Source of the DNA: Escherichia coli
Lineage (GTDB): Bacteria; Pseudomonadota; Gammaproteobacteria; Enterobacterales; Enterobacteriaceae
Direction: 5' to 3' (one strand)
NCBI RefSeq assembly: GCF_003334385.1
Contig: NZ_QOWN01000053.1
DNA: 31,720 nt
Under the pieces are notes generated by a model, which saw only the letters and a list, made by a program, of their open reading frames with translations, had not been told where the DNA came from and did no database searches. A program made the translations under genes and the position numbers. Shown here one piece after another: positions 9,914-10,745 of this stretch. The first letter of the stretch is position 1; every line of letters begins with the position of its first letter.

Positions 9914-10745
9914 CCAGTCTCCCCGAATTACTCATTTCATGCAGCGATGACACGATGTCACTGACTGGCGTAATACCCCCCCGGCGCTGGCTGGTCAGAA
10001 TATCGGTTTCCGCTCTGAGTTTATCTCTGGCGGCGTTGATTCTTTCCCGGTCAGCACGAAGTTTTGGTGCTGTTTCCGCCAGAACGTCCAGCGTCAGCAA
10101 TGAGCGTTCAATTGACTCGATACGGGCAATATTCCGGTCAAGGGCCTGTTCTGCTTTGAGTATTTTGTCGTACAGGGCAACACGGGTTTCCACGTCAGCC
10201 GCCTCTTTCAGGTCGGCGAACATTTTTTTCAGTGTTCCTGTTACTGAAAGTGCGCGGGCCCGGGTGAACACCAGTTCATCGAACAGCACCATATCGGACG
10301 CATCATCCATGAGGTTATCTGCCTCAAGATACTTCGCATATCCACGGTGTCTCACGGCGTGGGTGTTACGGTCGCTAAACCGGGCAACGGGGTGAGGATT
10401 ACCCGATCTGCTGTTGCGTTTCGTTTCTGCCGAATTTGCGCAGTTTTTTGCGCATTTTTCATCACTGCCATCATCGCCGTAAGACTCGTCATTACTGGAC
10501 TCGTCATCAGCTCCATGCGCATTTTTTTGTGCGCTTTTTTGAGTGTCAATTTGCGCACTTTTTTGCGCATTTTTCTGCGCACTTTCCTCTGTATTTTTGG
10601 GGGAGTTTTTGCGCAGTTTTATGTACCGACGAGCCGTGCCATAGCAGATATTGTTCTGTCGACACCAGTCCTGAAGTTTTATGCCAGTTCTGGCATGTTC
10701 GCGTCGGAATGCCTGCTCCAGTTTTTTCCAGTCCAGCTTTGCCAT
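9894..10745 (-). CDS. Terminase small subunit (putative, 283 aa)
   Basis: N-terminal HTH-like region (MAKLDWKKLEQAFRREHARTGIKLQDWCRQNNICYGTARRY), gene directly upstream of and overlapping terL; internal QKNAQKSAQ repeats. Confidence 0.6.
   Translation of the reverse strand: MAKLDWKKLEQAFRREHARTGIKLQDWCRQNNICYGTARRYIKLRKNSPKNTEESAQKNAQKSAQIDTQKSAQKNAHGADDESSNDESYGDDGSDEKCAKNCANSAETKRNSRSGNPHPVARFSDRNTHAVRHRGYAKYLEADNLMDDASDMVLFDELVFTRARALSVTGTLKKMFADLKEAADVETRVALYDKILKAEQALDRNIARIESIERSLLTLDVLAETAPKLRADRERINAARDKLRAETDILTSQRRGGITPVSDIVSSLHEMSNSGRLDDIPEE
10515..10620. repeat. Phased short repeats TGCGCA(n)TTTTTT, about 6 copies, inside terS
   Basis: Copies at about 10516, 10530, 10551, 10566, 10580 and 10611; they encode the (A)QK(S/N)AQ repeats of the protein. 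Confidence 0.6.

Follow-up and report, generated by a model that had tools for sequence, protein, structure and literature searches.

What is the function of the cluster of TGCGCA hexamers that lies inside the small terminase gene (terS) of an Escherichia coli prophage? The cluster is found in the stretch of 31,720 nucleotides that was analysed here (contig NZ_QOWN01000053.1, referred to as the window), and an initial annotation had proposed it as a candidate recognition site for packaging (pac). The comparative evidence described in the following supports this proposal. We consider it probable that the hexamers are binding sites for a predicted helix-turn-helix of TerS and constitute the recognition part of a pac site of the P1 type.

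Its packaging genes and its lysis, nanS-p-like and Q genes identify the window as the late region of a lambdoid prophage of the 933W/Sakai-like type (Sepvirinae). The terS product matches PHROG 370 ('terminase small subunit') over its full length with an E value of 3.4e-117, and shares 74% identity with the TerS proteins of Stx phages. The gene adjoins terL, which is followed by the portal gene, both being located downstream of terS, and the terS ORF and the start of terL overlap (Table 1). Rz/Rz1, lysozyme, holin, a nanS-p-like gene and Q are found upstream in the window. The first 389 residues of TerL are 96% identical to TerL of VT2-Sakai, and TerL is presumed to be the nuclease and motor that works at the hexamer site. 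The terS of Escherichia phage PhiR12_3 from ECOR13 shares 99% identity with that of the window. Among 5,426 complete genomes of E. coli, the terS allele of the window is rare (22 genomes) and the 933W type much commoner (about 380). Pfam searches with TerS and with TerL revealed no significant domain, and a PDB sequence search with TerS returned chance matches only.

Table 1. Features of the packaging region, with positions in the window and, for the hexamer arrays, in the terS gene.
Feature	Position in window	Strand	Position in terS	Basis or remark
terS, small terminase subunit, 283 aa	9894..10745	-		ORF; PHROG 370 full-length match; 74% identity to Stx-phage TerS
Part of terS coding for the predicted helix-turn-helix, aa 1-43	10617..10745	-		Model and profile match to P1 PacA
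Predicted helix 3, aa 35-41 (YGTARRY)	10623-10643	-		AlphaFold2 model
Proximal array: TGCGCA at 10610-10615, 10576-10581, 10564-10569, 10552-10557 and 10516-10521; TGCGCT at 10530-10535	10516..10615		nt 131-230	
61-bp spacer between the arrays	10455..10515			Codes acidic linker
Distal pair: TGCGCA at 10449-10454 and 10437-10442	10437..10454		nt 292-309	In-frame Cys-Ala
terL, large terminase subunit, 568 aa	8207..9913	-		PHROG 2 and related terminase families
Portal gene	6063-8207			After terL

On the + strand, exact copies of TGCGCA start at positions 10437, 10449, 10516, 10552, 10564, 10576 and 10610, and a copy with one mismatch, TGCGCT, is located at 10530-10535. These seven exact copies, of 18 in the whole window, fall within 179 bp (10437-10615), where 0.10 copies are expected at the window-wide density (Poisson P of seven or more, 2e-11). 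The initial annotation had described about six copies between 10515 and 10620 that recur every 14-21 bp, each followed by a run of T. The count agrees with our data if the five exact copies of this part and the degenerate copy are considered together, and on the + strand a T-run does follow each copy of the cluster; since terS is encoded on the minus strand, these are A-runs in sense orientation. The array reaches further than the annotated range, with a second pair (10437/10449) beyond a spacer of 61 bp. The recurrence has to be corrected as well: Tandem Repeats Finder determined a unit period of 12 bp, at 10435-10459 and at 10550-10585. Including the degenerate copy, the start-to-start spacings are 12, 67, 14, 22, 12, 12, and 34 bp, and five of the seven gaps equal 12 bp or near-multiples of 12. 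The 61-bp spacer harbors a direct repeat, GACTCGTCAT, at 10483-10492 and 10498-10507.

A repeat of this kind may simply be the by-product of a low-complexity linker (A-Q-K-S/N) that arose when a 12-bp unit slipped during replication, without any function at the level of DNA. The period of 12 bp corresponds to four codons, the region codes for a presumably flexible linker between domains, and the number of units varies among close relatives (e.g., 3-5 in the 933W type). The initial annotation had described the repeats as the source of amino-acid repeats, and (S/N)AQK is indeed encoded. This however accounts for the array only in part, as the hexamers use three reading frames: the seven copies of the window encode L-R once (CTG-CGC), A-Q or A-H four times (xxT-GCG-CAx) and C-A twice (TGC-GCA), and the 283 TGCGCA sites of the relatives are distributed over the three frames with 194, 52 and 37 sites. 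Synonymous resampling of nt 121-330, with the protein fixed and codons drawn according to their usage in terS, terL and the portal gene (20,000 trials), yielded a mean of 0.99 TGCGCA and a maximum of six, compared to the seven that are observed. In 28 distinct ungapped sequences of the Klebsiella type, identity at third codon positions was 0.97 within the hexamers, compared to 0.78 in the spacers and 0.87 where the helix-turn-helix is encoded. The use of three frames, the shortfall of the resampling and the conservation of third positions within the hexamers together argue that the constraint acts on the DNA and not on the peptide. Furthermore, the peptides differ (LR, AQ, AH, CA) under a constant hexamer, and Ala is replaced by Glu when the motif switches: in the relatives with TGCGAA described below, the distal site reads TGC GAA, so that Cys-Ala becomes Cys-Glu while the DNA motif is kept. 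The spacing in relatives is irregular, and the hexamer co-varies with a helix that is encoded outside the repeat. We therefore regard slippage of a linker as a highly improbable origin of the array.

The part of terS directly preceding the array in sense orientation codes for the N-terminal domain of TerS. For this domain AlphaFold2 predicted helices at residues 6-20, 24-30 and 35-41 (pLDDT 77), and the third helix of this model is likely the recognition helix. Foldseek with the N-terminal model retrieved mostly helix-turn-helix DNA-binding domains, all of them as weak matches (E > 0.6). Comparison of the N-terminal profile to the N-terminus of PacA of phage P1 resulted in a hhalign probability of 92% (E = 5.6e-7), and BLASTP against PacA in an E value of 6e-4. 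PHROG 1711, the family of P1 PacA, matches TerS of the window with an E value of 2.4e-4, and its matches to this protein and to several relatives span the first 75-150 residues. These comparisons identify the N-terminal domain of TerS as a homologue of the PacA N-terminus. The homology is limited to this domain of about 45 amino acids, while the remaining TerS belongs to PHROG 370.

In order to follow domain and array through the family, about 120 distinct relatives with the N-terminal domain were surveyed, which stem from phages and prophages of E. coli, Klebsiella, Yersinia, and Aeromonas (phage records, 80 viral contigs of which 66 are distinct, and 54 further contigs of the Aeromonas type of which 50 are distinct). 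All but two of them carry four to nine hexamers that start at nt 131-175 of the gene, just past the part coding for the helix-turn-helix. One of the two exceptions is a truncated ORF, the other (contig L145) has a SARRYLK helix and no array. The type of hexamer changes with the sequence of predicted helix 3, into which the co-varying residues 39-41 fall. Relatives with (T/S)ARRY(I/L)K (n = 55) have on average 5.3 TGCGCA and about zero other hexamers. For (T/S)AKRYIK (n = 6), the means are 4.3 TGCGAA and 1.5 of the complement TTCGCA, with about 0.2 TGCGCA, and TGCGAA and TTCGCA are often merged into the palindrome TGCGAATTCGCA. TARTRIK (n = 9) goes along with 4.1 GATCAT on average. In Klebsiella phage Chronis, whose N-terminal helix-turn-helix is a different one, GTACGCA is present in seven copies. 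The AKRY and ARRY domains are otherwise very much alike, and the exchange of one Arg to Lys is accompanied by C to A in every copy of the hexamer, including that of the distal site. Hitch-hiking cannot yield such a concerted change of all copies, which implies, as far as comparison of sequences can tell, that the hexamer is selected for recognition by the protein that bears helix 3.

These numbers have to be read with some caution. Helix and array are less than 100 bp apart and are inherited together, and the co-variation therefore rests on few independent switches, about three or four classes, and not on some 120 independent observations. PacA of P1 has a TARRYL helix and yet the hexamer TGATCA, so residues 39-41 alone do not represent a universal code. 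A distal cluster is not universal either, since the Aeromonas type lacks one.

TerS as the binding protein is a prediction, and the hexamers may instead be bound by another factor, for example by a nucleoid protein of the host, a regulator of the phage or a component of a restriction-modification system. TGCGCA contains GCGC and is a palindrome of the kind that is read by dimeric regulators and restriction-modification enzymes. Such a factor would have to follow TerS, however: the hexamer shifts with residues of the TerS helix across Aeromonas, Yersinia, Klebsiella, and E. coli, and the array is always located within terS. In addition, none of the ten larger ORFs of the window that were scanned matched a methyltransferase family. 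Binding by a factor other than TerS is very unlikely in view of these data.

The survey also bears on the idea, put forward in the initial annotation, that phased A/T tracts between the hexamers bend the DNA. A-rich spacers are limited to the E. coli alleles. The Klebsiella and Aeromonas relatives keep the hexamers, at irregular distances of 7-27 bp, with spacers that are not A-rich, and intrinsic bending by A-tracts was rejected as a conserved feature of the site. It is thus the hexamer, and not the phased A-tract, that is conserved.

The 933W and VT2-Sakai (Sp5) type has the terS gene, the C-terminal domain of TerS and a 96% identical TerL in common with the window. Its array agrees with that of the window in position and in the period of 12 bp, and the distal TGCGCA sites are shared. 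Alignment of the window to terS of VT2-Sakai and phi346 revealed an identical start followed by a diverged block. In this block, exactly at the place of the TGCGCA units of the window, the Stx-phage allele carries CGATCATGAAAT as a 12-bp unit in four copies. The proximal array of the 933W type consists of four to five copies of CGATCAT, the reverse complement of the TGATCA/G of P1, with a Dam site in each copy. The N-terminal sequence differs as well, with ...CYGTARRYIKL... in the window versus ...NYNTARTRIKM... in the Stx phages. Conservation among relatives with the same terminase, on which the original proposal had been made to depend, is thus seen for the position of the array, while the proximal TGCGCA itself is missing from relatives with 96% identical TerL. 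Since a different hexamer occupies the same position and comes together with a changed recognition helix, the replacement is a compensatory change and not a loss. The unit that was exchanged between the two alleles is a module of DNA-binding domain and array. One detail does not fit: the 933W type kept one or two distal TGCGCA although its proximal units are GATCAT.

Data on packaging by relatives are in agreement with a pac mechanism. Phage 933W performs generalized transduction, and terminal redundancy was inferred for it (PMC3752737). This supports headful packaging for 933W, and the phage of the window would be expected to use the same mode. Stx phages have also been called 'cos phages', with no data given (PMC7566468), and one PhageTerm report labels a 933W-like phage as 'Mu-like', which we judged uninformative. 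No Nu1 or lambda-type label occurs in the descriptions of the PHROG families listed as matches of TerS and TerL. A lambda-type cos site was considered and rejected on the grounds of these listed families (PHROG 370, PHROG 2 and related ones), as judged by their descriptions, and of generalized transduction by the relative 933W. The deposited records of phi346, Stx2 II and Chronis seem to start according to annotation convention (that of phi346 begins at terL), and are therefore uninformative on the DNA ends. Neither a pac site of 933W-like phages nor TGCGCA repeats in a terminase gene were found described in the freely accessible full-text literature that was searched.

The palindromic hexamers could also act through structure, either as hairpins of the terS mRNA or as intrinsic terminators of antisense transcripts on the + strand (TGCGCA-T6-TGCGCA followed by T-runs). 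Six terminator-like sites were indeed found on the + strand, compared to 1.2 expected, and the folding of either strand is better than that of shuffles (z = -3.9 and -3.8). Arrays of palindromic hexamers are always self-complementary, however, and the proven pac DNA of P1 reached z = -2.9 in the same test. Across relatives, z ranges from +0.5 to -4.8 (+0.5 for the TGCGAA array of Yersinia, -1.2 for Aeromonas) and is thus not conserved, and the pairing partners vary. Antisense T-runs arise only with A-rich spacers, as in the E. coli alleles, and Rfam gave no match. Moreover, structure leaves the co-variation with the TerS helix unexplained. Because the signal is a by-product of the palindromes and is not conserved, we rejected RNA structure or termination as the primary explanation, and attribute only a minimal probability to it.

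Among the known packaging sites, pac of P1 is most similar to the array of the window. It was defined experimentally, comprises 161 bp inside pacA and contains seven TGATCA/G hexamers, which are arranged as HEX4 and HEX3 around the cleavage points (PMC10028697; NC_005856 annotation). It also has an IHF site, and Dam methylation gates the cleavage (PMC10028697); for the original work (Sternberg & Coulby 1987, Skorupski et al. 1994) we rely on the summary in PMC10028697. The comparison to known pac sites that the initial annotation had suggested revealed the same position and the same grammar for P1. In both systems palindrome-like 6-bp elements of the form TGNNCA are located in the small-terminase gene, shortly 3' of the part that codes for the helix-turn-helix, and the N-terminal TerS domains are homologous. 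Both have two clusters and a spacer, with four and three hexamers about 88 bp apart in P1, and five to six and two hexamers about 61 bp apart in the window. In pacA, hexamers occupy nt 194-233 and nt 323-352 and the cuts are found near nt 276-285; in terS of the window, the hexamers are located at nt 131-230 and 292-309. Spacing within the clusters is irregular in both cases (7-16 bp).

There are also clear differences between the two sites. TGCGCA has no Dam site, whereas TGATCA/G of P1 carries GATC; GATC is absent from every TGCGCA unit, and therefore gating by methylation as in P1 cannot apply here. In contrast to pac of P1 with its IHF site, the window has no IHF consensus between the clusters: a consensus scan for WATCAANNNNTTR with up to one mismatch found none on either strand of 10380-10700. 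Outside the N-terminal domain, TerS of the window belongs to PHROG 370 and PacA to PHROG 1711, and TerL of the window shows no similarity to PacB.

The other well-studied sites share fewer features with the array. Pac of SPP1 and SF6 (pacL-pacC-pacR at the 5' end of gene 1) resembles it in having multiple TerS contacts on both sides of the cut, at the small-terminase gene (PMC9611059). The TerS family and the box sequences of these phages are different and presumably unrelated, and the SPP1/SF6 model invokes intrinsically bent DNA, while A-tracts of the window type are not conserved among relatives. Pac of P22 lies inside the small-terminase gene (gene 3) of a headful phage, as does the array (PMC9611059). 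It is however a single asymmetric site of 22 bp, and identity with a P22-type pac was rejected, since the window has an array of repeated short hexamers and not a single site of about 22 bp. To our knowledge, no series of helices and matching hexamers exists for P22.

If the array is part of a P1-type pac site, as we favor, an oligomeric TerS that displays several helix-turn-helix domains would occupy, on concatemeric DNA, the 5-6 sites of the proximal array (10516-10615) as well as the distal pair (10437-10454). TerS would then recruit TerL, which would introduce the cut that initiates the series close to these sites. This may happen in the 61-bp spacer, which is a candidate cut region by analogy to P1. 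From the cut end, headful packaging would proceed.

The comparative data show that TerS helix and hexamer evolve together, but do not tell what is achieved by the binding. TerS may therefore bind the hexamers for another purpose, such as autoregulation of terS and terL or loading in cis, with packaging starting elsewhere or non-specifically. The array is part of coding DNA in the late packaging operon, close to its 5' end, and binding there could affect expression. A promoter scan of the region nevertheless showed no excess (one match versus 0.8 expected), and in pac phages DNA binding by TerS is known for its role in packaging recognition (review PMC9611059). The homologous PacA system of P1 employs an equivalent array as pac. 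We consider another purpose of TerS binding unlikely.

What appears to be new is a probable pac array of the P1 type that has a new hexamer specificity and resides on a different terminase scaffold. In the proposed view, the reader domain and the adjacent sites would move together, as one cassette that terminases can exchange. Such an exchange would explain why this prophage and the phages of the 933W/Sakai type share TerL but differ in helix and hexamer, and pac sites would be found inside terS because inheritance and exchange involve reader and site as a single unit. We lean, with considerable reservation, towards the broader view that there is a large and so far undescribed family of 'reader-plus-site' cassettes, in which a PacA-like helix-turn-helix is followed by its own hexamer array in the same gene, which occurs on at least three TerS scaffolds, which has a specificity that is readable from the sequence and which is swapped between phages without a change of their motor. 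The scaffolds would be PHROG 370 (this prophage and the Stx phages of the 933W kind), PHROG 51 (many phages or prophages of Klebsiella, Yersinia, and E. coli) and PHROG 1711 (P1 PacA), and the switches ARRY/TGCGCA, AKRY/TGCGAA and TARTR/TGATCR, with a different helix-turn-helix and GTACGCA in Chronis.

Specific binding of TerS to pac in vitro is weak or undetectable for P22, Sf6, SPP1, and SF6, and a 2022 review calls the mechanism 'unclear and controversial' (PMC9611059). The family described here represents a natural specificity series, in which one residue of a helix changes together with one base in each copy of the hexamer, and which is testable by swaps. If our view is correct, the pair of R39K and C5A would provide a natural system for understanding how TerS reads DNA. 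A pac site is predicted for the 933W-like Stx phages and for those of their relatives that are stx-negative, and if the cassette family is real, the pac sites of hundreds of enterobacterial prophages, Stx phages included, would be predictable from sequence. Knowledge of the pac site helps to interpret the ends of phage genome assemblies and to build packageable phagemids, for which pac of P1 is already used (PMC10028697), and it helps to predict generalized and lateral transduction of virulence and resistance genes.

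The late region of the window has a 933W-like layout. On the late-gene (minus) strand, no ORF of at least 100 aa lies between Q and the nanS-p-like gene, and no stx gene was recognised in this interval by searches that were not aimed at stx itself. ARAGORN detected no tRNA genes in the whole window. By appearance, the prophage is related to the Stx phages but stx-negative. Its 933W-type large terminase (568 aa) matches PHROG terminase families and has no significant match in Pfam-A, and no Pfam match was obtained for the small terminase subunit.

Positions of the features in the window and in sequences of relatives (L-numbers)
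Feature	Sequence	Position	Position in terS (nt)
Large terminase gene	window	8207-9913	
Direct repeat in spacer	window	10483-10507	
Interval from nanS-p-like gene to Q	window	13488-17538	
nanS-p-like gene	window	13488-15491	
Q	window	16912-17538	
ORF of PHROG 630	window	22355-23125	
Lone TGCGCA pair	window	22477-22503	
CGATCAT array, VT2-Sakai	L002	1640-1690	140-190
terS break, Stx2a_JNE122137	L008	1375-1450	
Second TGCGCA group, Klebsiella phage ST405-OXA48phi1.3	L010	1560-1605	360-403
Distal TGCGCA, 933W-type alleles	L018	1730-1770	
Distal TGCGCA, 933W-type alleles	L029	1745-1780	
Distant relative	L145	1201-1530	

The spacer between the two TGCGCA groups of the window terS contains a perfect 10-bp direct repeat, GACTCGTCAT, in two copies 15 bp apart. 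On the gene strand it reads ATGACGAGTC and encodes part of an acidic linker. Besides the terS array, the window has a sole close TGCGCA pair, 21 bp apart, within an ORF of unknown function (PHROG 630).

In TerS genes of the PHROG 51 type, three more TGCGCA form a second group within the conserved core domain, about 160 bp past the proximal array; this group may correspond to the distal cluster. The distant relative L145, whose domain is 40% identical and has the helix SARRYLK, departs from the pattern of predicted recognition helix plus hexamer array: no hexamer cluster is seen downstream. The match may sit within a longer, different protein.

In terS of 933W/Sakai-type Stx phages (VT2-Sakai; also L018-L030, sequences of relatives), four to five copies of CGATCAT follow each other with a strict 12-bp period, and individual isolates have between 3 and 5 units. 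Despite these proximal units, 933W-type alleles retain one or two TGCGCA distally, unlike the class with the helix AKRY, in which the distal site changed its hexamer along with the proximal ones. The retained TGCGCA may be a relic of recombination, or a site that is read differently.

In a clade of Stx2a phages (Stx2a_JNE-type records), terS is broken by foreign DNA directly past GATCAT unit 3. This DNA starts with TGAACCGCCCCGGGTTTCCTGGAGAG, which resembles the end of an insertion sequence. In these records the match to terS is limited to its first 83 nt, and therefore the terminase and the putative pac array are disrupted there.

The P1 pac hexamer TGATCA/G is the reverse complement of the CGATCAT unit, and every unit of the 933W/Sakai-type terS contains a Dam site. 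The presence of a Dam site in each of these P1-like units makes it a testable idea that packaging in Stx phages might be gated by Dam, as it is in P1.
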